Below are positions 1 to 51,305 of a DNA stretch of 64,000 bases, piece after piece. The stretch spans positions 44,886 to 108,885 of the forward strand of contig CAIMPC010000039.1 in NCBI GenBank assembly GCA_903843285.1, read 5' to 3'. The stretch is from Candidatus Omnitrophota bacterium. GTDB lineage: Bacteria > Omnitrophota > Gorgyraeia > 2-01-FULL-45-10. The notes below the pieces were generated by a model that was given only the letters and a program-made list of their open reading frames with translations, searched no databases and had not been told where the DNA came from. The position numbers and the translations under genes are program-made. Each line of letters opens with the position of its first letter. Position 1 is the stretch's first letter.

Positions 1-1
1 A

Positions 2-268: not shown

Positions 269-322
269 ATGAAGGGAAAATAGCCAGCCATGAATTACGA
301 ACCATTGGCGATTAACTAAGTT

Positions 323-808: not shown

Positions 809-1485
809 CGATATGTGCCCATGTCGCATTGAATATATTGTTGGCGTTGGCAGCGTTCTGGACTATCATAGCGATAGTTTTTAATAAAGAGATAAAGGTT
901 GTCTTCGATCGCGATCCGGCCGCAGTTAATTTTCTGGAAGTACTACTGACGTATTCGGGGCTGCACGCTATAATCATATACAGAATAACCCATCTTCTTA
1001 ATCGGGCCCATATTCCATTCTTCCCGAGATGGTTTTCGCAGATCGGAAAATTTCTTACCGGCATAGAGATTCATCCGGGCGCCCGAATCGGAAAAAGGTT
1101 TTTTATCGATCATGGTATGGGAGTGGTTATAGGAGAGACTACCATAGTGGGTGATGATGTCCTTCTGTATCAGGGCGTCACGCTAGGCGGAACGGGTCTG
1201 GAGAAAGGCAAAAGGCATCCGAGTATCGGCAACAATGTTGTCGTAGGAGCTGGCGCAAAGGTGCTCGGAAATATAATGATTGGTGATAACTCGTATATAG
1301 GCGCGAATGCGGTTGTTATAAAGGACGTTCCGCCAAACTCGACCGTGGTCGGCGTGCCGGGTCGTGTAACTAAACAGGATGGCAAAAAACTGGACGTTAA
1401 CCTCGATCACATACATGTATTGGATCCGATACTGCAGGAGATCGACGAGCTGAAGAGGAAGATAGATAGTCTGGAAAAGAAATAG
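805..1485 (+). CDS. cysE: serine O-acetyltransferase
   Basis: Left-handed beta-helix hexapeptide repeats: [44 protein letters not shown]. Overlaps the ispF stop by 4 nt. Confidence 0.85.
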
Positions 1486-1491
1486 ATAGCA

Positions 1492-2943
1492 ATGAAGATA
1501 TATAATTCACTCACAAGAAAAAAGGAAGATCTTGTGCCGATCGAAGCGAAAAAGATCGGCATTTACGTCTGCGGGCCCACCGTGTACGATGAACCGCATA
1601 TCGGACATGCGCGCAGTGCCTATATATTTGATGTGATACGACGCTACCTAGTTTATAAAGGTAATGATGTAAAATTTGTCCGAAACGTTACCGATGTTGA
1701 TGACAAGATCATAAATAGGGCTAAGGATTTATCGAAAGACGGCCCGAATCTGATCGAGGCAACAAAGCAGATATCGAAGAAGTACCTCGATTCCTATCAC
1801 CGCGATATGGAGCTCCTGGGCATCGGTCACCCGGACAGAGAGCCTAAGGCCACAGAATATATCCCTAAGATGATCAAGTTTATAGAGATCCTCATAGATA
1901 AGGGGTCGGCATACGCGGTAGACGGAGGCGTATATTTCGATGTAAAGAAGGCCAGGGACTACGGTAAGCTTTCCAACCAGAATATTGAAAAGATGGAGGC
2001 TGGTGCCAGGGTCTCTCTGGGTGAGAAAAAGAAGGACGGATTGGATTTCGCATTGTGGAAATCCGCGAAAGAAGGTGAGCCTTCGTGGGACAGCCCGTGG
2101 GGAAAGGGGCGCCCCGGGTGGCACATCGAGTGCTCGGTGATGAGTTCCGATATTCTCGGAGATGAATTTGATATTCACGGCGGCGGTATAGACTTGATAT
2201 TTCCGCATCATGAGAACGAGGTAGCCCAATCCGAAGGCGCCGGCAAGAAATTCGCTCATTATTGGATACATAACGGCCTGCTTACCATAGACGGCGAAAA
2301 GATGGCGAAGTCTCTCGGTAATTTTATATCAATACAAGATTTCATAAAGAAGTATAGGGACGCGGATTACCTAAAGCTGTTATTTCTCAATACGCATTAC
2401 CGCCACCCGGTCGACTATAGCGAAGAGAAGATAGGTGAAATGAAGATTCAGAAGGAAAGGTTCATGATACTTTTCGATAAGATAGACAGAATCGCCAAGG
2501 CTTCCGGTTCCGGGCTTTCAGCCGCGTCCGAGACGACCGGAAATATTGAAGCCGGGGATCTGTCCAGGGCAAAATTTGATGATGCCATGGATGACGATTT
2601 CAATACTCCCCTTGCGCTTGCGTCGCTATTTGATGAAGTCACATATGCAAACAAACTGATGCAGGGCAAAGATGACTTCACACGTTTTGAAGCAGAGAAT
2701 CTATTGGCGATAAAGAAGCAGATTGTCGAACTTGGCCGCATACTTGCCCTCGACATAGAGAAGGACTTAACTAAGACGGATGTGAATGAGACCGAGGTGC
2801 TTAGGTTGATCGGAGAAAGAAACGGAGCTCGAGCCAAAGGTGATTTTAAGGCCGCAGATGAGATACGGAAGAAGCTCTCAGGGGAGCTCGGCATAATACT
2901 TGAGGATACAAAAGAAGGAACCTCATGGCGAAAACGATCTTAA
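1492..2943 (+). CDS. cysS: cysteine--tRNA ligase
   Basis: 483 aa. HIGH-type motif (PHIGHARSA) and KMSKS-type motif (KMAKSLGN). The N-terminus MKIYNSLTRKKE is typical CysRS. Confidence 0.95.
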   Translation: MKIYNSLTRKKEDLVPIEAKKIGIYVCGPTVYDEPHIGHARSAYIFDVIRRYLVYKGNDVKFVRNVTDVDDKIINRAKDLSKDGPNLIEATKQISKKYLDSYHRDMELLGIGHPDREPKATEYIPKMIKFIEILIDKGSAYAVDGGVYFDVKKARDYGKLSNQNIEKMEAGARVSLGEKKKDGLDFALWKSAKEGEPSWDSPWGKGRPGWHIECSVMSSDILGDEFDIHGGGIDLIFPHHENEVAQSEGAGKKFAHYWIHNGLLTIDGEKMAKSLGNFISIQDFIKKYRDADYLKLLFLNTHYRHPVDYSEEKIGEMKIQKERFMILFDKIDRIAKASGSGLSAASETTGNIEAGDLSRAKFDDAMDDDFNTPLALASLFDEVTYANKLMQGKDDFTRFEAENLLAIKKQIVELGRILALDIEKDLTKTDVNETEVLRLIGERNGARAKGDFKAADEIRKKLSGELGIILEDTKEGTSWRKRS

Positions 2944-3593
2944 AGACTACGCGGCACTGCGCCGGATCTAAGGCAAAGCGAGGCTTATTTATAACGTTCG
3001 AAGGCATAGAAGGTTGCGGCAAGACTACTCAGTCGAAGCTATTATACGATACCTTAAAGAAGCAGAATCTTGACTGCATGCTTACTCGTGAACCGGGAGG
3101 GACGTCTCTGGGCGAAAAGATAAGGGGATTGCTTTTACACTCGGACGGTATAAAGATATCCGATAGGTCGGAATTATTCCTATTTGAGGCTTCACGCAGT
3201 CAGATCGTGAAAGAGGTGATAACCCCGGCCCTTAAGTCCGGTAAGATAGTTATATGTGACAGGTTCAGCGATGCTACTTTTAGTTATCAGGGTTATGGCG
3301 GTAAAATTCCGATCGAGATCATTAGAACCCTCGATCATGCCGCTACCGGAGGCCTTAAGCCGGATCTTACCATACTTCTGGACATCGATACGATTACCGG
3401 ACTTAAGCGCGCAAGGCAGAAAGGTATCGATAGGATGGAAGGAAAAGATATAGCGTATCATAAGAGAGTTCGTGCGGGGTATTTAGACCTTGCATTGCGA
3501 TACCCCAATAGGATTAAAGTTATAAAGGTTGCCGATTCGATCGGCAAGACATATAGAGCGGTGGAGCGAGAGGTGGCGCGTGTCATCGTTTAA
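2925..3593 (+). CDS. tmk: thymidylate kinase (start codon uncertain; overlaps cysS)
   Basis: P-loop FITFEGIEGCGKTTQ, DRF motif and the overall Tmk fold pattern. The ORF-track start at 2925 gives an unusually long leader before the P-loop, so the real start may be a few codons downstream. Confidence 0.85.
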   Translation: MAKTILKTTRHCAGSKAKRGLFITFEGIEGCGKTTQSKLLYDTLKKQNLDCMLTREPGGTSLGEKIRGLLLHSDGIKISDRSELFLFEASRSQIVKEVITPALKSGKIVICDRFSDATFSYQGYGGKIPIEIIRTLDHAATGGLKPDLTILLDIDTITGLKRARQKGIDRMEGKDIAYHKRVRAGYLDLALRYPNRIKVIKVADSIGKTYRAVEREVARVIV

Positions 3594-4746
3594 AGATATA
3601 TTGGCTCAGGATAGCGCAGTATCATTTCTAAGAAGCGCTATTAATAGCGAAAGGATAGCTAACGCTTATCTGTTTCATGGCCCAAGCGGTGTGGGTAAGA
3701 AGATGACGGCCATTAGCTTTGCGAAAGCGATCAATTGCATTTGTCCGCATGGGGGTACTGTTGCGAAATACAACTCCCGTCATTCTGAGGGAGGCCAACG
3801 GCCGACCGAAGAATCTAAAAGCGAGATCCTTCCTCGCTTCGCTCGTCAGGATGACAGACGCTCTTTACTTCGCACTTTGGTCCCTTCGCTTCAGAATGAC
3901 GTGGAATTTGACATTTCGCAACAGTCTCATAGCGATGTTAACCATGGACTACCCTCGGGCGATTCGATAGATGGGTGCGGCAGCTGCTCATCGTGCAAAA
4001 AGATAAATTCACTGAACCATCCGGATGTGCGTTTAATAGAAGCCGATAACTATGGCTCGTCGGTGAAGATAGAGGATGTCAGGGCCGTGATAGAGGATGT
4101 GGGGATGAAGCCGTATGAGGCGAAGAAGAAGGTCTATATAGTAGACGGTGCCGATAACCTGACGGAAGAGGCGGCCAACGCTCTTCTTAAGACCCTCGAG
4201 GAGCCTTCTTCTGAATCTATGCTTATACTGATCTCGGAGAACTCGAGACGACTGCTTTCAACCATAAGGTCGCGTTGTCAGGCGGTGAAATTTTTTCCGC
4301 TCGGCGTGAATACCGTAGCGAAGATTCTCACCGATAGACATGGCATAAATGGTGACACCGCGCATATCCTGGCGGGACTATCGTGTGGGTCGCTCGGCGA
4401 GGCATTGAGGCTTAACGAGGATGATTTCTTTGCCAGGAGAGACCGGATAATAAAGGCGCTTTCGACCGGAACATTGGCAGAGCTCGAGTTTGATAAAACT
4501 ACCAGGCCCGAACTGCGGACGGCATTAAACATAATGCTGATGTGGTATCGCGATATCCTTGTGGCCAAGGCAGGTAATTCGAACGTAATAAATATCGATA
4601 AAGAAGCTCTGATCTATTCAGAAGCAAAAAAGACGGGTTTTGATAGATTGAATAATACTATAACACGCATTATCTCGATCCAGGGATATCTGGAGCAGAA
4701 TGCTAATCCCAAGCTTGCCATGGCAGCGTTGGGATCCTCAATATAG
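3580..4746 (+). CDS. holB: DNA polymerase III delta-prime subunit carrying a 56-codon in-frame repeat-element insertion in the zinc-module loop
   Basis: AYLFHGPSGVGKK Walker A, a Cys cluster (NCICPHGG ... DGCGSCSSC), NALLKTLEEP and SRCQ sensor motifs. The GTG start at 3580 gives MSSFKDILAQD. Nucleotides 3757-3924 belong to the dispersed family A repeat (see findings). Confidence 0.85.
   Translation: MSSFKDILAQDSAVSFLRSAINSERIANAYLFHGPSGVGKKMTAISFAKAINCICPHGGTVAKYNSRHSEGGQRPTEESKSEILPRFARQDDRRSLLRTLVPSLQNDVEFDISQQSHSDVNHGLPSGDSIDGCGSCSSCKKINSLNHPDVRLIEADNYGSSVKIEDVRAVIEDVGMKPYEAKKKVYIVDGADNLTEEAANALLKTLEEPSSESMLILISENSRRLLSTIRSRCQAVKFFPLGVNTVAKILTDRHGINGDTAHILAGLSCGSLGEALRLNEDDFFARRDRIIKALSTGTLAELEFDKTTRPELRTALNIMLMWYRDILVAKAGNSNVINIDKEALIYSEAKKTGFDRLNNTITRIISIQGYLEQNANPKLAMAALGSSI
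3757..3924 (+). mobile_element. MITE-like repeat family A, copy 1 (168 bp), inserted in-frame inside holB
   Basis: ACTGTTGCGAAATACAAC..GTCATTCTGAGGGAGGCCAACGGCCGACCGAAGAATCT....CAGAATGACGTGGAATTTGACATTTCGCAACAGT. It has the same terminal inverted repeats and core as copies at 7299, 51306, 52513 and 62917. Length is exactly 56 codons with no stop in the holB frame. Confidence 0.8.
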
Positions 4747-4755
4747 GCGGTATAT

Positions 4756-5541
4756 ATGAACGAAGCCGTACAGATTAAATTAAGAGAGTCGGGCAAAATT
4801 ACCCACTTCTCAACGAGTGGGATGAGGTTTAAGGCGGGTGATTACGTTATTATAGAGGCGGATAGAGGCCTGGACTACGGTCAAATCTTATCCGATCCCG
4901 AAGCGATTCTGGAATCGGATCTCGAGGAGCCTCTGCGAAAGATAATACGTAAGGCAAACCCGTGGGATATGCATCAGATCGATAAGAATAAGAATAAGAT
5001 AAAAGAGGTTATGGACTCCTGCTCAAAAAAGATAAAAGAGCGCCATCTTGCAATGAAGCTTATAGATGCCGAATATTCTTTCGATCGCTCAAAGATAGTA
5101 TTTTATTTTACAGCTGAAGGAAGAGTCGACTTCAGAGACCTGGTTAAAGATCTGGCGAGTGCGTTTAAGACCAGGATAGAGCTTAAGCAGATAGGCGTCA
5201 GGGATGAAGCTAAGATGTTAGGGGGCCTTGGGCCCTGCGGGAGGGCGCTATGCTGTGCGACACATCTGAAAGATTTCGAGCCGGTTACTATAAAGATGGC
5301 CAAAGAGCAGAACTTACCGCTTAATCCGACTAAGATCTCGGGCCTCTGCGGACGGCTTATGTGCTGTTTGGGATATGAATATAGTACTTATAAAGATCTT
5401 ATGAAAGGCATGCCGCGCGAAGGAGAGATAATAAAGACAGCGAAAGGAAATGCTAAGGTCTTAGGTATAAATGCGTTAAAGCGCTCCGCTACCGTAGAAC
5501 TCGAGGACGGAAGCCAGATGGAAGTACCATACAATAAATAA
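4756..5541 (+). CDS. ricT: PSP1 C-terminal domain protein (RicT/YaaT-like)
   Basis: 261 aa. Conserved tmk-holB-yaaT synteny as in Bacillus. Cys-rich C-terminus (GPCGRALCCATHL...LCGRLMCCLGYE) is typical of PSP1/YaaT. Confidence 0.7.
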   Translation: MNEAVQIKLRESGKITHFSTSGMRFKAGDYVIIEADRGLDYGQILSDPEAILESDLEEPLRKIIRKANPWDMHQIDKNKNKIKEVMDSCSKKIKERHLAMKLIDAEYSFDRSKIVFYFTAEGRVDFRDLVKDLASAFKTRIELKQIGVRDEAKMLGGLGPCGRALCCATHLKDFEPVTIKMAKEQNLPLNPTKISGLCGRLMCCLGYEYSTYKDLMKGMPREGEIIKTAKGNAKVLGINALKRSATVELEDGSQMEVPYNK

Positions 5542-5542
5542 T

Positions 5543-7108
5543 ATGAAGAAAAAATATTATATAACGACTCCGGTATATTACGTAAATTCCAAACCGCACA
5601 TAGGCCATTCCTATACTCAGATCGCCTGCGATACGCTTGCCCGTTTTATTAAGCAATTGGGCCGGGACGAAGTCTTTTTCATGACCGGTACTGATGAGCA
5701 CGGAGAGAAGATAGAAAAGGCCGCCGTAGAATCAGGGCTTAAGGAAGGCCAGGAACAGAAGTTTGTGGACGGAATAGTGCCTGTATTTAAAGACCTCTGG
5801 ACTAAGCTCAACATAAAATACGATTACTTCATACGAACCACCGATGATTATCATATAAAAACCGTACAGAATTTCCTCGATAGGCTTTACCGGCAGGGGA
5901 AGATATATAAGAAACTTTATAAGGGATGGTTCTGCACGCCATGCGAGACGTTCTGGACATCTACACAGAGCCCGGACGGGATATGCCCCGACTGTAAGCG
6001 CCCGCTGGAAAAACTCGATGAGTCAAATTATTTTCTTAAGACATCCGAACACCAAAAGTGGCTGATCGATTATATCGACAAAAACCCGGACTTCATACAA
6101 CCTGATTTCAGGAAAAACGAGATATTGGGATTTCTGAAGAATGAAGAGCTTATGGATCTGTGCATAACAAGGCCGAAGAGCAGGATGAGCTGGGGCATTG
6201 AGGTGCCATTCGATAAGGATTACGTAACATACGTCTGGTTCGACGCACTGATTAACTACGTCTCGGGAGCCGGTTATCCGCACGACATGGAGAGGTTTTC
6301 AAAGACCTGGCCGGCTGAAGTGCACGTGATAGGCAAGGACATTATCAGGCATCATGCGGTATTCTGGCCGATAATGCTGCGTTCACTAGAGATAGAGCTG
6401 CCGAAGTCTATATATGCGCATGGGTGGTGGGTTATTAAAGGCGAGAAGATGTCAAAATCGAAAGGTAATGTCATCGATCCCATCGATATAATTTCGCGTT
6501 TTGGGGTCGATCCCTTCAGGTATTTTCTATTGAGAGAAGTGCAATTCGGATCGGACGGAGCCTTTAGCGAAGAGGCGCTTGTGGCCAGGTATAACAGTGA
6601 CCTCGCCAACGATATTGGAAATCTGCTAAGCAGGTCGCTTACTATGGCGGAGAAGTATTTTGATGGTCATGTGCCCGATGTATCAAATATTAATATAGTT
6701 AATACCAGAGCGGAAGAGATAAAGGCCAGGGCCATTCGATCTGTAAGTGAGATGGAAAAGCTGATACCGAAGTTAGATTTTACGACCGCGCTTGCAAATA
6801 TATGGGAAGTTATCGCTCTTGCCAATAAGTTCATCGAGGATTCGAAACCATGGGTAATGGCCAAAGAGGGAAGAAGGGACGAGCTGGCATTGGTTATCTA
6901 CACTCTTCTCGAGGCATTAAGAATAGTATCGATCGAAGTATATTCTATCATGCCCGAGACATCCGAAAAGATGCTGGCTCAGCTGGGTATGGACAAAGCG
7001 GATGGTCTTAATTTAGCAAATGCTAAAATATGGGGATCGCTCCCCAAAGGTATGAAGGTCAATAAATCACAGTCCTTATTTCCACGCATTTTAGTTAAGC
7101 CACAATAG
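5543..7108 (+). CDS. metG: methionine--tRNA ligase (short form without C-terminal tRNA-binding domain)
   Basis: HIGH motif (PHIGHSYT), KMSKS motif (KMSKSKGN) and a zinc knuckle (CTPCETFW...CPDCKRP). 521 aa. Confidence 0.95.
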   Translation: MKKKYYITTPVYYVNSKPHIGHSYTQIACDTLARFIKQLGRDEVFFMTGTDEHGEKIEKAAVESGLKEGQEQKFVDGIVPVFKDLWTKLNIKYDYFIRTTDDYHIKTVQNFLDRLYRQGKIYKKLYKGWFCTPCETFWTSTQSPDGICPDCKRPLEKLDESNYFLKTSEHQKWLIDYIDKNPDFIQPDFRKNEILGFLKNEELMDLCITRPKSRMSWGIEVPFDKDYVTYVWFDALINYVSGAGYPHDMERFSKTWPAEVHVIGKDIIRHHAVFWPIMLRSLEIELPKSIYAHGWWVIKGEKMSKSKGNVIDPIDIISRFGVDPFRYFLLREVQFGSDGAFSEEALVARYNSDLANDIGNLLSRSLTMAEKYFDGHVPDVSNINIVNTRAEEIKARAIRSVSEMEKLIPKLDFTTALANIWEVIALANKFIEDSKPWVMAKEGRRDELALVIYTLLEALRIVSIEVYSIMPETSEKMLAQLGMDKADGLNLANAKIWGSLPKGMKVNKSQSLFPRILVKPQ

Positions 7109-7231
7109 TTACCCACTGCTATTGACTTTACGTAATTCTGTGATATGCTTGAGATAGAACAAAGTTTGTTTTTAGCTAATAAAATCCTTCCTTTCAATTT
7201 GAATCCGATACAAATAAGTTAAATGGCTTAA

Positions 7232-7296
7232 TATAGCTATAATAACTCTTAACATGCTTAGCGGATGAGCATGTTAAGTAACATTATAGTTATATC
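7232..7296. repeat. long imperfect palindrome; core perfect 11-bp stem CTTAACATGCT/AGCATGTTAAG with 9-nt loop at 7248-7278
   Basis: Seen directly in the sequence downstream of metG. There is no T-tract after it, so it is not a classic intrinsic terminator. Confidence 0.5.
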
Positions 7297-7298
7297 AA

Positions 7299-7471
7299 GG
7301 GGCTGTTGCGAAATACAACTTCTGTCATTCTGAGGAAGGCCATCGGCCGACCGAAGCCTGCCTACCTGCAGGTGTTCGACAGTAGGTAGGCAGGCTTCCT
7401 CGCTTCGCTCGTCAGGATGACAGACGCCCTTCGGCTTCTCTCAGAATTATAAAATTTGAATTTCCTGCCCC
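7299..7471 (+). mobile_element. MITE-like repeat family A, copy 2 (intergenic, metG-tatD)
   Basis: GGGGCTGTTGCGAAATACAACTTCTGTCATTCTGAGGAAGGCCATCGGCCGACCGAAG...CTCGTCAGGATGACAGACG...TCTCAGAATTATAAAATTTGAATTTCCTGCCCC. It carries an extra internal palindrome GCCTGCCTACCTGC/GCAGGTAGGCAGGC. Confidence 0.75.
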
Positions 7472-7539
7472 AGTCACATTTACCGACGCATTACTTCATT
7501 ATTGCAATCTGTGTCGTATTATCATATAATCATGATATT

Positions 7540-8904
7540 ATGTTAATAGATACGCACTGTCATCTTGATTTTAAGGACTTTGACCACGACCGCGATGAGG
7601 TAATAAGCAGAGCATCAAATGCCGGAGTTGGGCGAATAATAAACGTAGCCAGCTCTGTGGAGGGATCCCGCCGGTCTGTAGAGCTTGCGGGTAAGTATGA
7701 GCACATATATTCTACCATAGGAATCCATCCTCATGATGCGGCGTCCGTAAATGATGGTGTTATGTCTGAGCTTAAAGCGCTTGCTACAGGAAAGAAGGTT
7801 GTCGCGATAGGCGAAGTAGGACTCGATTATTACCGCAATCTCTCTTCCAGGGAGGATCAGATATCTGCCTTTAATAAATTCATCGATCTTGCGCTGGAGC
7901 TCGACCTGCCGATGATATTACATGTCAGGGAAGCTGATCGCGATGCATTAGATATACTTAAGGCCCGAAACAGATCCCTTCGCGGTGTAATACACTGTTT
8001 TTCAGGAAGCTCTGATTTTATGAAGGAATGCCTCGATTTTGGATTATTCGTATCATTTACCGCAAACATTACTTTTAAAAAAGCAGATCCGCTCAGAATG
8101 GTAGCGCGCGACGTTTGTACGGAAAGATTACTGCTGGAGACGGATGCGCCGTTCCTGGCTCCTCAGGCCTTGCGAGGCCAACGCAATGAACCGGCATACC
8201 TCACCCACCTGGCGGGAGAATGGTCGCGCCTCCTGGACCTGTCAAAAGACGATATCGCCAGAATCACGACTCATAACGCCAATACCCTTTTTAGATTAGA
8301 TGTAGAAGAGTCATCCAGGATTGCATACGAGATAAGGGATTCCCTCTATCTGAATATAACCAATAGATGCACCAACTCATGCTATTTCTGCATAAGGAAC
8401 CAGACTTCCTTCGTAAAAGGGCATAACCTTAAGATCGATAAAGAGCCGTCGGTAGATGAAATAATGGATGCAGTGAAGGGTTCGAAAAAATATAATGAGA
8501 TAGTATTTTGTGGTTATGGTGAACCTACGCTTAGGCTGGATGTGATTAAAGATGTGGCCGCCAGGGTGAAGGATTCCGGGGTTAAAGTTAGAGTGGTTAC
8601 CAATGGTCATGGCGACCTGATAAATTCCAGAAAAATAGCCAAAGAGCTGTCCGGGATAGTCGATAAAGTATCCGTAAGCCTTAATACGAATACCAAAGAA
8701 TTGTACAATAAATACTGTAAGCCTCAGTTCGGCCCGGATACTTATGGCGACGTGATAAGCTTTATTAAGGATTGCGTTGCAAATAAAATAGAAGTGGAAG
8801 TGACGTGCCTTGATCTTCCCGACGTGGATCTTAAAGAGTGCGAAGCTATCATTAAAGAGCTTGGGGGTATATTCAGGCCTCGATCTCTCGGAGTGGTCGG
8901 ATGA
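7540..8904 (+). CDS. fusion protein: TatD-family metal-dependent hydrolase (N-terminal) + radical SAM domain (C-terminal, TatD-associated radical SAM type)
   Basis: N-terminal MLIDTHCHLDFKDFDHDRDEV, GIHPHDA and EVGLDYY are TatD motifs. The C-terminal part has the CTNSCYFC CxxxCxxC radical-SAM cluster motif plus the GYGEPTL glycine-rich SAM motif. Start chosen at the ATG just before the TatD HxH motif. Confidence 0.75.
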   Translation: MLIDTHCHLDFKDFDHDRDEVISRASNAGVGRIINVASSVEGSRRSVELAGKYEHIYSTIGIHPHDAASVNDGVMSELKALATGKKVVAIGEVGLDYYRNLSSREDQISAFNKFIDLALELDLPMILHVREADRDALDILKARNRSLRGVIHCFSGSSDFMKECLDFGLFVSFTANITFKKADPLRMVARDVCTERLLLETDAPFLAPQALRGQRNEPAYLTHLAGEWSRLLDLSKDDIARITTHNANTLFRLDVEESSRIAYEIRDSLYLNITNRCTNSCYFCIRNQTSFVKGHNLKIDKEPSVDEIMDAVKGSKKYNEIVFCGYGEPTLRLDVIKDVAARVKDSGVKVRVVTNGHGDLINSRKIAKELSGIVDKVSVSLNTNTKELYNKYCKPQFGPDTYGDVISFIKDCVANKIEVEVTCLDLPDVDLKECEAIIKELGGIFRPRSLGVVG

Positions 8905-9959
8905 GAGGATTCGCCGGGTTTTTAAAAAGAGAACGCCTATACATACTTATCCTTATACTTGTAACGATAGTAAGTATATTAGTAGTATTAGGACCCCCCG
9001 ATAGAACGAAACATGAAGGTCATAGCGCAGTAAAAGACGCGTCGGCTTCATTAGAAGAAAGATCTTTGAATGATCGTCCGGCAGTAGAGAAGGCTTTGGC
9101 AGGGAATAAGTATCTTGCATTAATGTTCATGATAGTGTCACTACTTACCGCCGTCATATTTATTCTGGGCATTGTTATCGATCTGTCTATTCTATGGTTG
9201 AGGCGTGCAGGTAAGCCTCTGGAGATGGCCACCCGCACTCATGACAAGATAAGCTGGACATTATGGGACGTGACAAAGGTTGTAGCTCTGTATCTATTCT
9301 TCGCATATATTATACTTATCGCAGAGGCCTCCCTTGGCAATATATTTCCCGCGATAAAGGGTAATAATTTCAGGATGATATTCAACTCGTCGATAATGGA
9401 TATATTGGTCGTTGTATTTATATTATATTTTACCGTTTCACAGTACAAAGTAAGTTTTGAGTCGCTGGGCTTGACGACGAAGAATTTTTTTAGGAATATA
9501 TATTATGGTATAGTAGCTTACATAGCTTTTATGCCTTTAATGGTAGCCATAGTGGCCGTGACTGCCATTATAATAAATTTGACCAAATTTGTACCGCATG
9601 TGCAACCCGTGGTCGGGCTCTTTCTCGAAGAAAAGAATATGCAGCTTCTGATGTATACGAGCATATTTGCGGCGATAGCCGGACCCGTAATCGAGGAATT
9701 ATTCTTCAGAGGGTTTATGTACAATGCTATGAAGAAGTATGCAGGGGTATTCTGGGCCATGACTATTACGGCTTCTCTATTTGCCGGGCTTCATGCGCAT
9801 ATGGTCGGGTTCATGCCGATATTGGCCCTCGGAATATTATTGGCGTATTTATACGAGAAGACCGGCAGTCTCGTCTCTTCCGTTACAGTCCATGTGATAC
9901 ATAACGTAAGTATGGTCACGCTGGTATTCCTTGTAAAGCAATTGGGAGTATATAAATAA
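8901..9959 (+). CDS. CPBP-family (CAAX/Abi) intramembrane metalloprotease
   Basis: Multi-pass membrane protein with the three CPBP motifs: EELFFRGF, LFAGLHAH and HVIHN. Overlaps the upstream stop by 4 nt, so likely an operon. Confidence 0.75.
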   Translation: MRGFAGFLKRERLYILILILVTIVSILVVLGPPDRTKHEGHSAVKDASASLEERSLNDRPAVEKALAGNKYLALMFMIVSLLTAVIFILGIVIDLSILWLRRAGKPLEMATRTHDKISWTLWDVTKVVALYLFFAYIILIAEASLGNIFPAIKGNNFRMIFNSSIMDILVVVFILYFTVSQYKVSFESLGLTTKNFFRNIYYGIVAYIAFMPLMVAIVAVTAIIINLTKFVPHVQPVVGLFLEEKNMQLLMYTSIFAAIAGPVIEELFFRGFMYNAMKKYAGVFWAMTITASLFAGLHAHMVGFMPILALGILLAYLYEKTGSLVSSVTVHVIHNVSMVTLVFLVKQLGVYK

Positions 9960-11063
9960 ATGTCAAAGGTTGCGCTTAGGCGTTGCGAGGATTATGATTT
10001 TGATAAGGTGTATAAAGCAGTAAAGAGTTCAGTAGATCTCCTGGGCGGCATGGAGAGATTTGTCAAGCCCGGCATGAAGGTACTGCTGAAGCCTAATTTA
10101 TTGACTGCGGCTTTGCCTGATGAGGCAGTTACTACTCACCCTGAAGTGGTAAGGGCGGTAGGACGCCTGGTGCGCGAGGCCGGCGGAACCGTCAGGATAG
10201 GGGATGCACCGGGTGGATACGGTAAAAATATAGACGAGATATTGGATAAGTCCGGATTACGGCGTATTGCGGAGGAGGAATGGTTCGAGTTGGTCAAATT
10301 CAACACCGCGAGCTTTAAAGACGGAATCCCGATAGCCAAACATGTCCTTGAGGCGGATCTGATGATCTCGATACCAAAGATTAAGACGCATTGCATTACC
10401 GTTATGACCGGAGCGATAAAAAATATGTTTGGTACGGTTACCGGATTGCATAAGGCCGAATGCCATTCTAAGGCGCCCAGAGAAGGAGATCTGGCCAGGA
10501 TACTGGTGAAAGTATATTCTATGACTAAGCCGGGGCTTACCGTAGTAGATGGTATAGTCGGGATGGAAGGCGATGGGCCCTCGGCCGGTAAGCCTAGAGC
10601 CTTAAATGTAGTGATGGCGGGCATCGATGCAGTGGCGATAGATGCCTGCATGGCTAAGATCATAGGACTCAATCCTCTCGACGTGGTGGTGACGAATATG
10701 GCGTGTGAAGCCGGTCTTGGTGTAGCCGATATGTCCAAAATAGAGGTGCTCGGCGATAGGCTTGACAGCTTCATCGTAAAAGATTTTAAGCTTCCCCGGA
10801 CGATGCCCTTAAGGATTTTACCCCGACCGATATTGAAGTGGTTCCTGGGATTAATGAGCTTTAAGCCGGATATCGATTATGATATTTGCGTGAAGTGCGG
10901 GCTTTGCAAGGCGGCATGTCCGGTAAATTGCATATCCATCCGAGAGACGTTCTGTAGTATCGATTATTCGGCCTGCGTTAGATGCCTTTGTTGTCACGAG
11001 GTCTGCCCGCATAAGGCGATCTCGATCAAACGTAATCTGTTGACGAAGATGATATGGGGGTGA
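9960..11063 (+). CDS. DUF362 domain protein with C-terminal 2x[4Fe-4S] ferredoxin domain
   Basis: N-terminus MSKVALRRCEDYDFDKVYKAV...VKPGMKVLLKPNLL is typical DUF362. C-terminus has CVKCGLCKAACPVNC and CVRCLCCHEVCPHKA 4Fe-4S motifs. Starts 1 nt after the CPBP stop. Confidence 0.7.
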   Translation: MSKVALRRCEDYDFDKVYKAVKSSVDLLGGMERFVKPGMKVLLKPNLLTAALPDEAVTTHPEVVRAVGRLVREAGGTVRIGDAPGGYGKNIDEILDKSGLRRIAEEEWFELVKFNTASFKDGIPIAKHVLEADLMISIPKIKTHCITVMTGAIKNMFGTVTGLHKAECHSKAPREGDLARILVKVYSMTKPGLTVVDGIVGMEGDGPSAGKPRALNVVMAGIDAVAIDACMAKIIGLNPLDVVVTNMACEAGLGVADMSKIEVLGDRLDSFIVKDFKLPRTMPLRILPRPILKWFLGLMSFKPDIDYDICVKCGLCKAACPVNCISIRETFCSIDYSACVRCLCCHEVCPHKAISIKRNLLTKMIWG

Positions 11064-11157
11064 GGATTTTTTCGCACGCACCATAGTTAGGCATTTACTT
11101 TTGGGTGGTGCCTTCGCTTATCGCAAATTTGATTAGTCATACAAATTTGCCGTTGTG
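11064..11157 (+). repeat. repeat family B, copy 1 (short; immediately after stop codon)
   Basis: GATTTTTTCGCACGC...TTTACTTTTGGGTGGTGCCTTCGCTTATCGCAAATTTG...CAAATTTGCCGTTGT. Shares 30-40 nt blocks with the copies at 22741 and 28278. Confidence 0.65.
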
Positions 11158-11178
11158 ATCTACGAGAGGAGAGTCGAG

Positions 11179-11595
11179 ATGAAAAAGGTTGTCGCAATGT
11201 TTGCGTTATGTCTGGTGATGAGTGGCTGTGCGACGTCGGGAAATATATGGAAGGAGATCGCGGGCACTTCTACGCAAGAGATCGAAGAGACCAGGGTGGA
11301 TGCGGTCTCTAAGGTATTCGAATACGATTATAAGACCTGTTATTTTAATGTGGAGAAACTCTTAAATAAGATGCCAAAGATCTCCATCTATTCTAAAGAC
11401 AATAGCACGATAGCCGTCTATTTTATAAATCCGGACACCACGCCTGTGGGGCTTTTTTTTAAGGAGATAGATTCGACTCATACGCAAGTGGAGATATCAT
11501 CACCGAGTACCCCCGCAAAGGAATGGGTTGCTAAGAACATATTCACTGAGACGGTTCAGGAACCCCAGAAACTTATAACAAAGGGCGGTATTTAA
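11179..11595 (+). CDS. hypothetical lipoprotein
   Basis: MKKVVAMFALCLVMSGCATSG lipobox (LVMSGC). RBS GAGAGGAGAG upstream of the ATG at 11179. No recognisable domain. Confidence 0.6.
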   Translation: MKKVVAMFALCLVMSGCATSGNIWKEIAGTSTQEIEETRVDAVSKVFEYDYKTCYFNVEKLLNKMPKISIYSKDNSTIAVYFINPDTTPVGLFFKEIDSTHTQVEISSPSTPAKEWVAKNIFTETVQEPQKLITKGGI

Positions 11596-11599
11596 ATCT

Positions 11600-12637
11600 A
11601 TGCCGGTGGATACGATAAATTGGAAGAGCGGTAAGGTAAGATTCATAGACCAGACGCTGTTGCCCGGCCGCGTGAAGTTCGTTAGCTGTGATAACGTTCC
11701 GCGTTTGTGGAGGGCAATAAAGAGGCTTGAGATAAGAGGCGCCCCCGCCATAGGCATTGCAGGGGCTTTTGGGGTGGTGCTTAGCGCCAATAACTCAAGG
11801 GCAAAAAGTGCCGAGAGATTTCTGAGGGACCTCCGCAAGGATATTAAATATCTCGCTTCATCGAGGCCTACGGCCGTAAATCTATTCTGGGCGCTGGAGA
11901 GGATGGAAAAGATAGCTAATACCAATTTGCATAATGGCATAGGTAAGACAAAGAATCTTCTTCTTAAAGAGGCGTTGGCAGTATTAAGAGATGACAGAAA
12001 ACACTGCAGGGCGATGGCGCGTTACGGTGCAAGGCTGGTGCGTCACGGAGATACGATTTTGACTCACTGTAACGCCGGAGGCCTTGCTACCGCTGACTAC
12101 GGCACGGCCCTCGGAGTCTTATTTGAGTCTAATAGGCTTAACAAACATATAAAAGTCTACGTGGATGAGACCAGGCCTCTCCTTCAGGGTTCGCGCTTGA
12201 CAGCGTGGGAACTGCTCCACGAAGGTATGGATGCCACTCTTATATGCGATAATATGGCCGCGAGCCTCATGGCGAAGGGTAAGATAGATAAGATCTTCGT
12301 CGGAGCTGACCGTATAGCTTCTAATGGTGATACGGCAAATAAGATCGGCACGTATTCCCTGGCGGTTCTGGCAAAATATCATAAGGTGCCATTCTATGTA
12401 GTGGCGCCGGCCTCAACATTTGATCTTAATATAAAAACAGGCAGGGATATACCGATAGAAGAACGTGATGCAAGCGAAGTGCGTACCGTTATGGGTAGAG
12501 AGATCGCGCCAAGAAATATTAAGGTATATAATCCGGCGTTCGATGTAACCCCTGAAAAGCTCATAACCGCTATAATTACGGAACGAGGAATATTTAAAAG
12601 GCCTTACAGGAAGGCCTTAGAAATATTAAGAGGATAA
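11600..12637 (+). CDS. mtnA: S-methyl-5-thioribose-1-phosphate isomerase
   Basis: 345 aa in the eIF-2B alpha/beta/delta-like family: RGAPAIGIAGA and GADRIASNGDTANKIGTY. Confidence 0.8.
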   Translation: MPVDTINWKSGKVRFIDQTLLPGRVKFVSCDNVPRLWRAIKRLEIRGAPAIGIAGAFGVVLSANNSRAKSAERFLRDLRKDIKYLASSRPTAVNLFWALERMEKIANTNLHNGIGKTKNLLLKEALAVLRDDRKHCRAMARYGARLVRHGDTILTHCNAGGLATADYGTALGVLFESNRLNKHIKVYVDETRPLLQGSRLTAWELLHEGMDATLICDNMAASLMAKGKIDKIFVGADRIASNGDTANKIGTYSLAVLAKYHKVPFYVVAPASTFDLNIKTGRDIPIEERDASEVRTVMGREIAPRNIKVYNPAFDVTPEKLITAIITERGIFKRPYRKALEILRG

Positions 12638-12655
12638 GGCGCGGGAAGAAGCGGT

Positions 12656-13567
12656 ATGAAGATAAAAGATATCGGTGAGATAGGATTAATCGAGCGTATT
12701 TCCAGAGGAATTAAGCTCGATAAGTCCGTCATAAAAGGCATAGGCGACGACACGGCGGTTATCGCTTGGACGCCCGGGAAATATTTGTTATACACATGCG
12801 ATATGCTCGTCGAGGATGTTCATTTCAGGGCTGGGCCGGCTGTGCCGTTTCAGATCGGATGGAAGGCTATGGCACGGAACCTGAGCGATATAGCGGCGAT
12901 GGGAGGTATAGGCCGATATGCGGTAGTCTCGATCGCCTTAGACCCGGAAAAAAGCATATCATTTATCGATGAGATATACAGAGGGCTGAGGGCCGCCTGT
13001 AAACAATTTAAGGTAAATCTCGTAGGCGGAGATATATCGAAATCGAAGAAGACGGTTATCGACGTCTCCCTCATAGGCGAAGTGGAGAAGCGGAATCTCG
13101 TTACGCGCGCCGGGGCTAAAACAGGCGATGTCGTTCTTACGACAGGGTCATTTGGCGGATCTATAAAAAAGAAGCACTTGAATTTTACTCCGAGAGTTAA
13201 TGAAGCGCGGTTTCTCGTAAATGGTTATAAGATAAACTCGATGATAGATGTGACGGATGGCCTAATCATAGACCTAAATAGAATACTCAAATCAAGCAAT
13301 GTCGGAGCCAGGATATATAAAGGCTCTATCCCTGTTTCTGCCGACGCCGTTTCATTTAAACGGGCCGTTACCGACGGAGAGGACTTCGAACTCTTATTTA
13401 CAATGAGTCCGGACGAAGCCCGGCGGTTAATGAATTCTCGATCGACAAAGATGAAGGTTCCAATATCTGTAATAGGTGAGATTGCAGACAGAAGAGAAGG
13501 ATTTAAACTGATAACGAATAAGCTCGAGCACAGGATCTTAAATCCGAAAGGGTATTTACATTTTTAG
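12656..13567 (+). CDS. thiL: thiamine-monophosphate kinase
   Basis: AIR synthase-related fold: IGEIGLIERI, GIGDDTAV, DMLVEDVHF. Confidence 0.85.
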   Translation: MKIKDIGEIGLIERISRGIKLDKSVIKGIGDDTAVIAWTPGKYLLYTCDMLVEDVHFRAGPAVPFQIGWKAMARNLSDIAAMGGIGRYAVVSIALDPEKSISFIDEIYRGLRAACKQFKVNLVGGDISKSKKTVIDVSLIGEVEKRNLVTRAGAKTGDVVLTTGSFGGSIKKKHLNFTPRVNEARFLVNGYKINSMIDVTDGLIIDLNRILKSSNVGARIYKGSIPVSADAVSFKRAVTDGEDFELLFTMSPDEARRLMNSRSTKMKVPISVIGEIADRREGFKLITNKLEHRILNPKGYLHF

Positions 13568-13990
13568 ATGGTCAGGATATCGAGAAGCATAGAAGATACT
13601 ATCGGCATTGGAGAAGGGATTGCGAAGGCCCTGAAAGCCGGTGATGTAGTCGCGCTTATCGGCAATCTCGGATCCGGTAAAACTGTGCTTACGAAAGGAA
13701 TCGCTAAGGGGCTCGGTGTAAAGAATATCAACTATGTAAATAGCCCGACGTTCGTCATAATAAAAGAGTATATTGCCAGAGTGCCGCTTTATCACCTTGA
13801 TGTATACAGATTAAATGAACTCGCGACCCTTGATGCCGAGACTTATGAGGAATATTTTTATGGCGATGGAGTTACCGTTATAGAATGGGCCGATAAAATT
13901 CGTAAGATATTACCGAAGAAATATATTGAAATCAGATTGTCCGTGATCGGTGAGTGCGAAAGAAAAATAGAAATAAAAAAGAATAAATGA
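13568..13990 (+). CDS. tsaE: tRNA threonylcarbamoyladenosine biosynthesis protein TsaE
   Basis: P-loop LIGNLGSGKTVLTKGIAKGLG, SPTF and LYHLDVYRL motifs. Confidence 0.9.
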   Translation: MVRISRSIEDTIGIGEGIAKALKAGDVVALIGNLGSGKTVLTKGIAKGLGVKNINYVNSPTFVIIKEYIARVPLYHLDVYRLNELATLDAETYEEYFYGDGVTVIEWADKIRKILPKKYIEIRLSVIGECERKIEIKKNK

Positions 13991-14655
13991 AATTATTAGC
14001 GATAGATACATCGACCGACTTTTTAAGCCTCGCCGTTATGGATGGCAATGATGTGCTCGCACGAATACATAGAAGCGAGCCGAGAAGCCATTCCAGCCTT
14101 CTCGTTCCGATGATAGATGAAGTCCTGAAGATGTCAGGGGTAGAGCTTAAGGCCCTCGATGGATTCTGTCTCAGCATAGGACCGGGATCATTTACGGGAC
14201 TGCGTATCGGCGTGACGACTATAAAAGGCCTTGGGGTTATTACAAAAAAGCCAATCGTTGTCGTGCCCACGTTAGATGTGATCGCCCAGAACGCAAAACG
14301 ATTTCATGGTATAATATGTACGGTTCTGGATGCCAGGAAGGCCAAGGCGTACGCTTGCATTTATAGGTCCGATGGTAAGGGCTTGAAAAAATTGTCCAAG
14401 GTTCTGCTGGCTCCTGTGGCCGGCATAGTTAAGATATTAAGTTGTTATGATGAAGTGCTGTTTCTGGGAGATTTTGCCGATAAGATTGCGCCACAGCTGT
14501 CCGGCGCCAGGGTCATGGAGGGCGCGTGGCAGCCGAGGCCCGAAGTTGTGGGAATCCTCGGTCTCGAGTATTTTAAAAAGAAGAGATTTGTTAAGGCCGA
14601 AGATCTGGAGCCTTCATACATTTATTCAAAAGAATGTGACGTTACGGGAAGATGA
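13987..14655 (+). CDS. tsaB: tRNA threonylcarbamoyladenosine biosynthesis protein TsaB
   Basis: MKLLAIDTSTDFLSLAV...GPGSFTGLRIG, inactive Kae1/YeaZ homolog. Sits in a tsaE-tsaB pair. Confidence 0.9.
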   Translation: MKLLAIDTSTDFLSLAVMDGNDVLARIHRSEPRSHSSLLVPMIDEVLKMSGVELKALDGFCLSIGPGSFTGLRIGVTTIKGLGVITKKPIVVVPTLDVIAQNAKRFHGIICTVLDARKAKAYACIYRSDGKGLKKLSKVLLAPVAGIVKILSCYDEVLFLGDFADKIAPQLSGARVMEGAWQPRPEVVGILGLEYFKKKRFVKAEDLEPSYIYSKECDVTGR

Positions 14656-15806
14656 ACGAGCTATCAGTTGATACGAAGAATGACGCCACTCATACCCATC
14701 ACCGCCCAACCTGGGCAGATATAGACCTAAGGGCCATAGAGTATAACTTCAAGCAGGTCCGAAAGCTCATCGGTAAAGACGTTCATATTATGACTGTGGT
14801 GAAAGCCAATGCCTATGGCCATGGTACCATCGAGGTCTCCGAAGTCCTTGAGCGCTCGGGCGTTGACTATCTCGGCGTCGCTACCACCGATGAGGCGGTG
14901 CGAATTAGAGATCATAATATTAAGACTCCGATACTCGTCCTGGGTTCAGTGCTTCCGTCTGAGGTTGCGGTAGCCGTGGAGAGAGATATTACCCTCACCA
15001 TCTGTGACGATGAGCTTCTCGATGCCATCAGAAGCCGGACCGCGCACGGCGGAAGATTAAAGGCACATATTAAGATAGATACCGGCATGGGCCGCGTCGG
15101 GATATGGCACGAAGATGCCCTCGGTATTATTAAGAGGATATCGTCGGAAAAAGGTATTTTACTGGAAGGTATATATACGCATTTCTCGAGCGCCGGACGC
15201 GACGATTTCTTCACCGCTTATCAAATAGAGGCGTTCGAAAAGCTGTTATCGTCGATAGAAAAGAATTGGATAAAAATACCTCTTAAGCATGCCGCAAATT
15301 CCATCGCCACGGTAGACTTCCGCAGGTCCCATCTGAATCTGGTCCGCCCGGGCCTGATAATATATGGCATGTATCCTAAGCACACATTTCCTAAACTTAT
15401 TAAGCTTAAACCCGCCCTGGAATTGAAGACAAAAATAGTTTTTATAAAAGATACTCCTCCGGGGCGCTCGATAAGCTATGGCCGCACATTCATCACCCAA
15501 AAACACACTAAGATCGCGACTTTGCCAATAGGTTATGCCGATGGTTTCGGGAGAAAGCTCTCGAATAAGGCCGAGGTCCTGATAAGAGGCCAGCGCGCCA
15601 GAGTGGTGGGGAAGGTTACTATGGATCAGACAATGATAGATGTCGGCCATATTAAAGGCGTAAAGGTCAGCGACGAGGTAGTGCTGATAGGCAGACAGGG
15701 CAAAGAAGAGATCAGGACCGAAAACCTTGCCCGCATGGCAGATTCCATAGCCTACGAAGTCATCTGTGGTATATCAAACCGAGTTCCCCGAATTTATAAG
15801 AGATAA
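14652..15806 (+). CDS. alr: alanine racemase
   Basis: PLP site VVKANAYGHG; 384 aa; C-terminal beta domain. Confidence 0.9.
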   Translation: MNELSVDTKNDATHTHHRPTWADIDLRAIEYNFKQVRKLIGKDVHIMTVVKANAYGHGTIEVSEVLERSGVDYLGVATTDEAVRIRDHNIKTPILVLGSVLPSEVAVAVERDITLTICDDELLDAIRSRTAHGGRLKAHIKIDTGMGRVGIWHEDALGIIKRISSEKGILLEGIYTHFSSAGRDDFFTAYQIEAFEKLLSSIEKNWIKIPLKHAANSIATVDFRRSHLNLVRPGLIIYGMYPKHTFPKLIKLKPALELKTKIVFIKDTPPGRSISYGRTFITQKHTKIATLPIGYADGFGRKLSNKAEVLIRGQRARVVGKVTMDQTMIDVGHIKGVKVSDEVVLIGRQGKEEIRTENLARMADSIAYEVICGISNRVPRIYKR

Positions 15807-15858
15807 TCTTCGCTACAAACAGATAGTTCCGCAATTAGTCAACATGGAGGATGATACA

Positions 15859-17766
15859 GTGAAAAAATATAGTGCATTAATTTCGACGTTAGCCCTAATA
15901 TTTTTTTCCTTTAATGTGGTAGTGATTGACTTTGCGTTTGCGCTTGCCCCCAGAATTGCCTCACAGGATCCCGATGAGATAGAGCGTATATATGCCGGAG
16001 GCCAAAAACTTTTTGCCGCGATGAGAGGGCCCGGAAGCGAGTTACCCCTTAGGGCGTATAAGCCGGGCTGGCAACGTCCGGCGAAAGTTGAAGGTGGAGA
16101 GCCAGTGGTTCGCGGGCTCGATTTTGACGGAATCGATTATGCTTCCATTCCCGAAGGTTGGTACAAAAATCTGATACTTTCAAAGACTACAGATCTCGTG
16201 AGAGCATTTAAAATCTTTAAGGAAGATGAAGCGCGGCTTTCATATAATTATGGTGTGACGGAGGGCTACTGGGAATTAAAGAAAGGCGGCGATGGAGAGA
16301 TCCCTATATGTCGATGGGAGCGCCATAATGTTACCGGGCAATGGACGCTCGTGATTCATCCGGATTTTATCAGAATGTGGAAAGACATACGAGAGAATGA
16401 CGTTTGGTTTGAATATACTTTTCCGGATGGCAAGACGAGGACCGTTAGCCTGGCATGGGCAATATTCTATCGTGTGGCGAAGCACGAAATGACGGACTTG
16501 GATATGAGGCTACGTACAGCAAAAGGGAGCGGTTTGGGGCATATTACTAGCGGTGATGTATCCAGTGGACATGTATTTGTTAGTCAAGACGAAGAATCCG
16601 CTAACAGAATCGGTGGTAGATATGCACTGGTGAACGATGCGATATGGATGTGGTTTCTGGGCTCATACTGCTTTCCGGGGTACAGCGCTAAGTATAATTC
16701 CAATGTAGCAAGGGCCAGATATTTATGGTTTCTTGGAAGCTATAAAGGATATAACTCGAAGAATCTTAATGCCAAAGCAGTTGAGCTCGGGTTTAATAAG
16801 GAATTTCCAGATCTGATCAGTGATTCTGACGCGAGAGATAGAGCGATCGACATAGCCGTTGCGGTCAATCACAGGTTTTACAGCAAATATATCAGGACGG
16901 AAGCTACAGATAGAGAGAAGAAGATGCGTAATGAGCATGTCAAAAGCCATGGAAAATTTAGACATAGCGTCGGTGATACCATTTACGCGGCAGGAATGGG
17001 GTTTTCCACCGCAGAAGAAGGGATACTCGCAAGGATCGATACAAATATGGATGCGAGCTCTATCGGTGACTGCCCGGGAGTTACTGATTCCGAACCGTCA
17101 GTTATGGACAGGGTGCTATTCTATCCATTCTTTAAAGAGCTTAACACTCAAAATGTTGAAATATACATTCCGCAGGGTCTATTATTGACGCCTTCGGTGG
17201 AGAGCGCAGTAAAAAGCCTAAACGAACGCATTCGCCAAAGGCGTGATGGAGATGGTCTCCCCGAATGCGCCGGCGTTAAACCCATTGAGATTAAGAAGTA
17301 TAATGCCATGAATTTAGATAAGATGTTGGCTCGGAAAGATAGTGGTTCAAGAAGGATATTTGTTGCCGACCAATCGACTGTAGGAGATTTTAGAATGCTA
17401 CTGGATAGTGGCAGGCAGGATTTATTTAGGGGAAATCGATTGTTGACAGCCGATACGCCGCAAGTAAATGATGATACAGAAAATTCCGTGCATCAGGCGT
17501 GGCTGATTAAGGTTGCCATGCTATCATGCCTCCTAACTGAAGATAACTATATGACGGTTGGTACAGCCCTGGAACAAGAGATAAATGGTAAGATAGAGGA
17601 TAATGCTGAAGAATATATTTCAAGATTAGCTCAGGTTAGCAAGGAAAACTTGGATAATAGGGACGTTTCAAGCCGTGTGAACTATTTTCTCGGTAAAGTT
17701 GTGAGGCTAAGCCAATTGGTGGCTGAACAGCTTAAGATCCTTAAGGCGTTCTGGACCGCGGCGTAG
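15859..17766 (+). CDS. hypothetical secreted protein, no recognisable domain, internal WFLGSY repeats
   Basis: Long ORF with RBS GGAGGA 7 nt upstream of the GTG at 15859. N-terminus KKYSALISTLALIFFSFNVVVIDFAFALA-P looks like a signal peptide with an AxA site. I recognise no catalytic motif. Confidence 0.5.
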   Translation: MKKYSALISTLALIFFSFNVVVIDFAFALAPRIASQDPDEIERIYAGGQKLFAAMRGPGSELPLRAYKPGWQRPAKVEGGEPVVRGLDFDGIDYASIPEGWYKNLILSKTTDLVRAFKIFKEDEARLSYNYGVTEGYWELKKGGDGEIPICRWERHNVTGQWTLVIHPDFIRMWKDIRENDVWFEYTFPDGKTRTVSLAWAIFYRVAKHEMTDLDMRLRTAKGSGLGHITSGDVSSGHVFVSQDEESANRIGGRYALVNDAIWMWFLGSYCFPGYSAKYNSNVARARYLWFLGSYKGYNSKNLNAKAVELGFNKEFPDLISDSDARDRAIDIAVAVNHRFYSKYIRTEATDREKKMRNEHVKSHGKFRHSVGDTIYAAGMGFSTAEEGILARIDTNMDASSIGDCPGVTDSEPSVMDRVLFYPFFKELNTQNVEIYIPQGLLLTPSVESAVKSLNERIRQRRDGDGLPECAGVKPIEIKKYNAMNLDKMLARKDSGSRRIFVADQSTVGDFRMLLDSGRQDLFRGNRLLTADTPQVNDDTENSVHQAWLIKVAMLSCLLTEDNYMTVGTALEQEINGKIEDNAEEYISRLAQVSKENLDNRDVSSRVNYFLGKVVRLSQLVAEQLKILKAFWTAA

Positions 17767-51304: not shown

Positions 51305-51305
51305 G

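Follow-up and report, generated by a model that had tools for sequence, protein, structure and literature searches.

A TatD–radical SAM fusion protein and its CPBP and DUF362 neighbours in a housekeeping gene array of an Omnitrophota bacterium

Organization of the locus

In this work, we focus on a cluster of three genes carried by a Candidatus Omnitrophota bacterium (assembly GCA_903843285.1, contig CAIMPC010000039.1, positions 44,886 to 108,885 of the forward strand). The whole stretch of 64,000 nucleotides (nt) was analysed and is termed the window hereafter; all coordinates refer to it, and all its substantial open reading frames (ORFs) lie on the plus strand. The first gene of the cluster (7540-8904, plus strand) encodes a protein of 454 amino acids (aa) in which a TatD-type hydrolase is joined to a radical S-adenosylmethionine (SAM) domain. 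It is followed by the gene of a CPBP, or Rce1-like, glutamic intramembrane protease of 352 aa (8901-9959, plus strand), and then by that of a DUF362 protein of predicted LarA-like fold, which carries a C-terminal ferredoxin domain with two [4Fe-4S] clusters (9960-11063, plus strand). The cluster is flanked upstream by metG (5543-7108) and downstream by mtnA (11600-12637). These three identities and their coordinates had been proposed in a first-pass annotation, and profile searches with TIGR04038, PF01026, PF02517 and PF04015 confirmed them.

The junctions between the three genes are tight. As the annotation had reported, the fusion gene and the CPBP gene overlap: the stop codon of the former and the start codon of the latter share the sequence ATGA at 8901-8904, which makes an overlap of 4 nt. 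The CPBP gene ends with a TAA (9957-9959) that is directly followed by the ATG of the DUF362 gene (9960), so that the gap is 0 nt and not the 1 nt given before. No internal terminator-like site with a convincing context was found within the cluster, whose content in guanine and cytosine (GC) is unremarkable. Since the genes overlap or abut, they likely share one transcript, and this arrangement suggests that the translation of the CPBP and DUF362 genes is coupled to that of the fusion gene. The start of the fusion gene is best placed at the ATG at 7540. A protein search retrieved a record (P0001) identical to the 454-aa product, with proteins from Omnitrophota metagenome-assembled genomes as the nearest named relatives, and the homologues measure 454-456 aa and start with MLIDTHCH, so the alternative TTG start at 7456 is unsupported.

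The TatD–radical SAM fusion protein

The N-terminal half of the fusion (7540-8310, plus strand, residues 1-257) is a TatD hydrolase domain. Residues 2-252 match PF01026 with 273 bits (cut-off 27) and TIGR00010 with 271 bits (cut-off 206), and all the metal-ligand motifs of the family can be found: the H6xH8 pair (H6-C-H8), GEVGLD91, H128 (LHVR127), H152 (HCF152) and ETDAP200. The HxH motif defines the class II TatD hydrolases (PMC10085689); the domain is of the YcfH-type, binuclear-metal kind. Its best solved relatives are of the YcfH type, namely 1j6o (6e-58), 2gzx, 6l25 and 1yix, while E. coli TatD itself ranks lower (4e-39). The first gene is the Omnitrophota orthologue of an ancient housekeeping TatD hydrolase of the YcfH/YabD type. 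In E. coli, YcfH is a two-metal enzyme that acts as a 3'-5' exonuclease on single-stranded DNA and as an apurinic/apyrimidinic endonuclease on double-stranded DNA (PMC10085689).

The C-terminal half (8311-8904, plus strand, residues 258-454) is a radical SAM domain of 197 aa, which matches TIGR04038 with 246 bits over residues 261-450 (cut-off 129.7) and PF04055 with 66 bits. It carries the cluster motif C277x3C281x2C284 and the SAM-binding motif G325YGEP. The first-pass annotation had made its proposal conditional on the cluster cysteines holding up to a closer alignment, and they did: C277, C281 and C284, as well as G325, G327 and E328, are invariant in 82 sequences with identities down to 36%. 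The domain amounts to a minimal core in which the one cluster site is of the CX3CX2C type. The protein ends right after this core, with no SPASM or twitch domain that would hold an auxiliary cluster. In the same 82 sequences, Cys324, which directly precedes GYGEP (FCGYGEP; window 8509-8511), is the one invariant cysteine besides those of the cluster, which argues against an auxiliary cluster. Three tyrosines (Tyr263, Tyr270 and Tyr389) are invariant as well, and together with Cys324 they are candidates for a hydrogen-atom donor or relay. The structure of the domain is predicted with very high confidence (predicted local distance difference test, pLDDT, of 95), and in a fold comparison it is nearest to the activating enzyme of pyruvate formate-lyase (PFL).

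A radical SAM enzyme encoded next to a CPBP protease can evoke the maturation of ribosomally synthesized and post-translationally modified peptides (RiPPs), and a TatD domain joined to a radical SAM domain can evoke anti-phage defence, with a QatD-like half and a viperin-like half; the first-pass annotation had raised both a peptide modification module and a stress or defence function. We consider these readings very improbable and in effect already refuted. The fusion does score against the corresponding families (92 bits for QatD, 36 for viperin, 24-39 for sactipeptide and ranthipeptide maturases, and, in PADLOC, 78 for QatD and 39 for pVip), but the cut-offs are far higher, at 230 for QatD (NF041926), 180 for viperin (NF038283) and 340-625 for the maturases, and the PADLOC and NCBIfam matches are to be seen as generic, sub-threshold ones. 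Against peptide maturation stand the lack of a SPASM domain, with a single extra invariant cysteine in the protein, and the lack of space for a precursor gene, as the genes of the cluster overlap and metG abuts tatD in relatives. Concerning defence, neither QatABC nor any other defence gene lies nearby, the neighbours being metG, CPBP, DUF362 and mtnA; the fusion occupies a fixed housekeeping position across phyla rather than an island, and the GC content does not stand out.

Distribution of the fusion

TatD-associated radical SAM proteins had been described in the first-pass annotation as a recognised family to which no function is assigned, and this is the case: the family is TIGR04038, which corresponds to IPR023821 in InterPro (10.1101/2024.11.19.624229). 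What did not hold is the idea that the covalent fusion of the two domains is in itself noteworthy. A genome scan with one genome per species returned at least 600 candidate stretches, at least 590 of which were confirmed to encode relatives of the radical SAM domain. The best 80 belong to Omnitrophota, Nitrospirota (Thermodesulfovibrionales), Desulfuromonadales (Geobacter), Brocadiales, Nitrospinota, Elusimicrobia, Firestonebacteria, Acidobacteriota, Ignavibacteria, Zixibacteria and others. The fusion occurs mostly in anaerobes. In locus L084, it is carried by Geobacter sp. AOG1.

In 78 of the 84 loci that were fetched, across more than 10 phyla, the TatD and radical SAM domains are encoded in one reading frame; among the six others, two are cut by contig ends and one (L054) has two adjacent genes. 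The same picture emerges at the protein level. A protein search gave 7943 proteins at E<=1e-10, the best 120 of which all carry both PF01026 and PF04055, and when representatives clustered at 50% identity were searched exhaustively, 228 clusters matched at E<=1e-30. Among the 150 best of these 228 representatives, 91 (61%) are polypeptides with TatD and radical SAM domains and 59 have the radical SAM domain only. Two standalone radical SAM members (L052 and L077) lie among unrelated neighbours (ABC transporter, CobW, gatB, disulfide reductase). The fusion is therefore the majority architecture, the usual state in a family that is already recognised, and a catalogued and widespread protein of the housekeeping type.

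The housekeeping array

The cluster had been placed between housekeeping genes as if it formed a unit of its own. The flanking genes are indeed metG and mtnA, but there is no island: the cluster lies inside a long co-directional array in the order cysS-tmk-holB-ricT-metG-[tatD-rSAM]-CPBP-DUF362-mtnA-thiL-tsaE-tsaB-alr (window 1-16000), which is common to many Omnitrophota. Most Omnitrophota loci, as well as about 26 of the 69 loci from other phyla, have the pair ricT-metG directly upstream of the fusion gene, and ksgA/rsmA is found directly downstream in five loci. The array matches the order of these genes in model bacteria, that is, holB-ycfH in E. coli and metS-yabD-...-ksgA in B. subtilis. 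When the ORFs lying up to 5 kb downstream were clustered in the fetched loci, no downstream gene family common across phyla came out, and synteny on this side exists at the level of lineages only.

This context is relevant to another reading, according to which the fusion would act on tRNA or aminoacyl-tRNA and not on DNA, for instance in the removal or repair of mischarged tRNA or of faulty 3' ends. Such a role would account for the adjacency to metG that is kept across several phyla; the presence of ksgA/rsmA downstream in some loci goes in the same direction. A cyanobacterial D-aminoacyl-tRNA deacylase, DTD3, reportedly belongs to the TatD family, as Wydau et al. are said to have found in 2009; of this, we confirmed that DTD3 exists. 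Besides, E. coli TatD degrades RNA too (PMC10085689). However, many loci do not have metG upstream (Thermodesulfovibrionales, Brocadiales, Geobacter), the array mixes replication and RNA functions (tmk, holB, ricT), so that adjacency is weakly informative, and the fusion has no tRNA-binding domain. We therefore hold a role on tRNA to be rather improbable, if less so than peptide maturation or defence.

The CPBP and DUF362 proteins and their association with the fusion

The CPBP protein matches PF02517 with 71 bits (cut-off 22.4) and carries the three signature motifs of these proteases, EExxxR (EELFFR265), FxxxH (FAGLH294) and HxxxN (HVIHN331). About seven hydrophobic 19-mer segments can be counted in it by the Kyte-Doolittle scale, which is a crude method, and the scores against the specific CPBP subfamilies of NCBIfam are all under their cut-offs.

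The DUF362 protein matches PF04015 with 179 bits, and its two CxxCxxCxxxCP motifs start at residues 310 and 339. It had been seen as a dedicated ferredoxin and plausible electron donor for the radical SAM enzyme. The two 4Fe-4S motifs are there, but the protein is more than a ferredoxin, because it has a LarA-fold domain with invariant polar residues of its own. This domain (residues 1 to about 295, with a DUF362 region of about 290 aa) was assigned to a LarA-like fold by a fold search on a model predicted from a shallow alignment (pLDDT 82.5). His144, Lys154, Asn46 and three aspartates are invariant down to 28% identity, and His169 and His60 are nearly so. There is a weak match to Lar_N over residues 110-162, and DUF362 and LarA belong to the same Pfam clan, CL0471 (PMC11770544). 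No match to the solved LarA proteins could be found at the sequence level, even with a profile, the fold search being the sole link to them. Its conserved residues make it most probable that the DUF362 protein is a redox enzyme acting on a substrate of its own; its ferredoxin tail could serve as an incidental reductant.

The three genes are found together in 11 of the 12 close Omnitrophota relatives, in which the fusion is at least 62% identical, and searches with the fusion and with the DUF362 protein as queries agree on this; the exception, L003, lacks CPBP. The co-localisation on which the first-pass annotation had staked its proposal of an unusual operon is thus real, and it extends to loci with different flanks. 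It is not obligate, though. In deeper Omnitrophota, L006, L008, L020 and L022 have CPBP but not DUF362, L005 has DUF362 but not CPBP, and L007 and L017 have neither. In L085 (1-6558), it is the radical SAM domain that is missing: a standalone TatD of 255 aa is followed by CPBP, DUF362/Fer4 and mtnA. Outside the Omnitrophota, no CPBP-like or DUF362-like ORF was found in the flanks of any of the 69 loci from other phyla, profile hidden Markov models (HMMs) included. Neither a TatD nor a radical SAM gene was found near the other 27 metagenome homologues of the DUF362-Fer4 protein. Since deeper Omnitrophota can lack CPBP, DUF362 or the radical SAM domain independently of one another, we infer that CPBP and DUF362 are probably accessory, lineage-specific members of the array rather than partners that the radical SAM enzyme requires.

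The trio could also be seen as a functional Omnitrophota module, in which the fusion would have the DUF362-Fer4 protein as a dedicated reductase or as an enzymatic partner while CPBP would anchor or process one of the components. Besides the conservation in close relatives and the translational coupling suggested by the gene junctions, the similar ranges of identity of the two proteins (62-80% for the fusion and 60-83% for DUF362 among the best hits listed) point to such a module. Nevertheless, we find it unlikely. The three genes occur together in one Omnitrophota clade and not wherever the radical SAM fusion occurs, and L085 indicates that CPBP and DUF362 do not depend on the radical SAM domain. 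Moreover, the DUF362 protein has a full LarA-like domain of a catalytic type. Finally, the genes mtnA-thiL-tsaE-tsaB-alr, which are functionally unrelated and can be taken as an internal control, show an order no less conserved than that of the trio.

The upstream region and other features of the locus

The fusion gene is separated from metG by an intergenic region of 431 nt (7109-7539, plus strand), which the first-pass annotation had described as the own upstream region of the cluster, with a palindrome and a miniature inverted-repeat transposable element (MITE). Both elements were found again. An AT-rich hairpin has its arms at 7227-7258 and 7268-7299, and a palindromic repeat resembling MITEs or repetitive extragenic palindromic elements lies at about 7285-7470, with a perfect 15-nt inverted repeat inside (7353-7398). 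The spacer as such is rather a local insertion of a genome-wide repeat, because metG directly abuts tatD in relatives (L003 and L114-L117). A sequence match to a sigma-70-like site (TTGCAA, 17 nt, TATAAT) lies at 7502-7530. The structure of the intergenic region has an RNA fold z-score of -9.96. A riboswitch or another known RNA was considered for this leader, and an Rfam scan gave E-values corresponding to chance matches only; the structure is that of the repeat-element hairpin.

The repeat is an intergenic element of about 130 nt with terminal inverted repeats (…CTGTTGCGAAATACAACTTCCGTCATTCTGAGG … CTCAGAATGACG…ATTTCGCAACAG). Six copies lie in the window, at about 3740-3920, 7285-7470, 32455-32640, 51292-51480, 52499-52690 and 62896-63080, while 0.01 occurrence of the repeat core would be expected by chance in 64 kb. 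The copy upstream of the fusion gene has diverged from the others and has the extra internal perfect palindrome.

The metG/tatD junction appears as a recurrent site of breakage or insertion. It holds the repeat in the window and unrelated genes in L001, L004, L113, L118 and L119; in L085, an Omnitrophota-like metagenome contig, ricT-metG is followed by a NifS-like cysteine desulfurase of 385 aa, ahead of the TatD without radical SAM domain. In some relatives, giant called genes adjoin the cluster (L001 1-7949; L113 1-4863; L003 15080-17371), with sizes of 2762 aa (ARMT1-like and radical SAM domains), 3216 aa (transketolase, transaldolase and PFK domains) and 4517 aa. They fit the very long multi-enzyme proteins reported in Omnitrophota (preprint 10.64898/2026.06.07.730766).

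Between the DUF362 gene and mtnA lies one more ORF (11155-11595, plus strand), which encodes a lipoprotein-like protein of 146 aa with the N-terminus MKKVVAMFALCLVMSGC. It has no Pfam family match in a profile search, and, among the loci compared, the closest relative (L001) is the only one in which an orthologue was seen. It probably stands outside the cluster.

Interpretation and possible mechanism

Taken together, the account that we favour, with a confidence that only somewhat exceeds an even chance, is that of a housekeeping TatD hydrolase of the YcfH/YabD type with a C-terminal radical SAM domain, after which CPBP and DUF362 were wedged before mtnA in one Omnitrophota clade. Going by the conserved motifs, a single polypeptide, encoded at a housekeeping position, carries two intact active sites. 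More tentatively, and with the balance of probability somewhat against it, the fusion could carry out a radical-assisted processing of nucleic-acid ends or lesions in anaerobes. In such a mechanism, the single [4Fe-4S] cluster would be reduced by a general ferredoxin or flavodoxin, a task that in the close clade may fall to the Fer4 tail of the DUF362 protein. The reduced cluster would then cleave SAM to give a 5'-deoxyadenosyl radical, and this radical would abstract hydrogen from a macromolecule, the likeliest target being a nucleic-acid residue, or a 3' end, that is damaged or blocked. The adjoining TatD active site would finally trim or excise the residue that was attacked. The open, minimal barrel predicted for the radical SAM domain, which resembles that of the PFL activase, would suit a large substrate, and the invariant Cys324 and tyrosines would suit a chemistry in which the hydrogen atom is returned; both features are compatible with the mechanism and are no proof of it.

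Several points weigh against this interpretation. The trio remains intact in L001, L004, L113, L114, L118 and L119 while its neighbours change: the upstream gene can be metG, a giant ORF, a HAD protein, a GT2 or the giant ORF with transketolase domains, and the downstream gene can be mtnA or nusB. A steady trio with changing flanks, together with the gene overlap, is the pattern that would be expected of a functional operon, and this also counts in favour of the module discussed above. The absence of a gene was scored at the locus, so that the missing CPBP and DUF362 genes may have been relocated elsewhere in those genomes. As for the nucleic-acid mechanism, it is drawn from the TatD partner alone; the bulk charge of the radical SAM domain indicates no clear basic surface (the median isoelectric point of the family is about 7.1), and the literature search on TIGR04038, on TatD with radical SAM and on DUF362 found no functional study and no substrate assigned to TIGR04038. 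The most integrated version, in which the fusion would be a radical-based enzyme for DNA lesions or RNA 3' ends that is wired in Omnitrophota to the DUF362-Fer4 protein, as its dedicated iron-sulfur redox enzyme of LarA-like fold, and to the membrane protease as a three-part system, has in our opinion a small chance of being right.

The locus itself is of little weight, being another copy of a catalogued fusion in a conserved housekeeping string. The family, on the other hand, is a real gap. It joins a radical SAM domain to the universal YcfH/YabD hydrolase, and at least several hundred species-representative genomes of more than 10 phyla encode a relative. Working out its chemistry could show in which way anaerobes deal with a class of nucleic-acid damage or processing, and it could also explain the cellular role of the YcfH-type TatD proteins. 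The DUF362-Fer4 proteins, with their LarA-like fold and conserved His/Lys/His set, are a second, small lead for enzymology.

Comparison with known systems

Among the neighbours of the fusion, the CPBP protein shares the three motifs and the multi-pass topology of the CPBP/Rce1-like proteases (MroQ, the myxosortases and the Abi-type immunity proteins), but it stays under the cut-off of every named subfamily and is extended at its N-terminus by as much as about 240 aa. Compared with LarA, that is, with the nickel-pincer-nucleotide racemases and epimerases, the DUF362 protein does not have the LarA C-terminal domain and has the ferredoxin domain with two [4Fe-4S] clusters in its place.

The radical SAM half is only 15-18% identical to the PFL-activating enzyme, NifB, BlsE and viperin, a likeness confined to the core common to the superfamily. 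The glycyl-radical enzyme that is the partner of the PFL-activating enzyme is not present at the Omnitrophota locus, and no family-specific HMM was passed. The TatD half has in common with E. coli YcfH, B. subtilis YabD and S. aureus SAV0491 the HxH motif and the metal ligands, as well as the place after holB/ricT/metG, while the additional 197-aa radical SAM domain is missing from those three proteins. The system to which the fusion corresponds as a whole is the TIGR04038/IPR023821 family, the fused form of which is named 'YchF/TatD family DNA exonuclease' by NCBI: the motifs and the two-domain architecture are the same, and the Omnitrophota protein is an ordinary member of this family.

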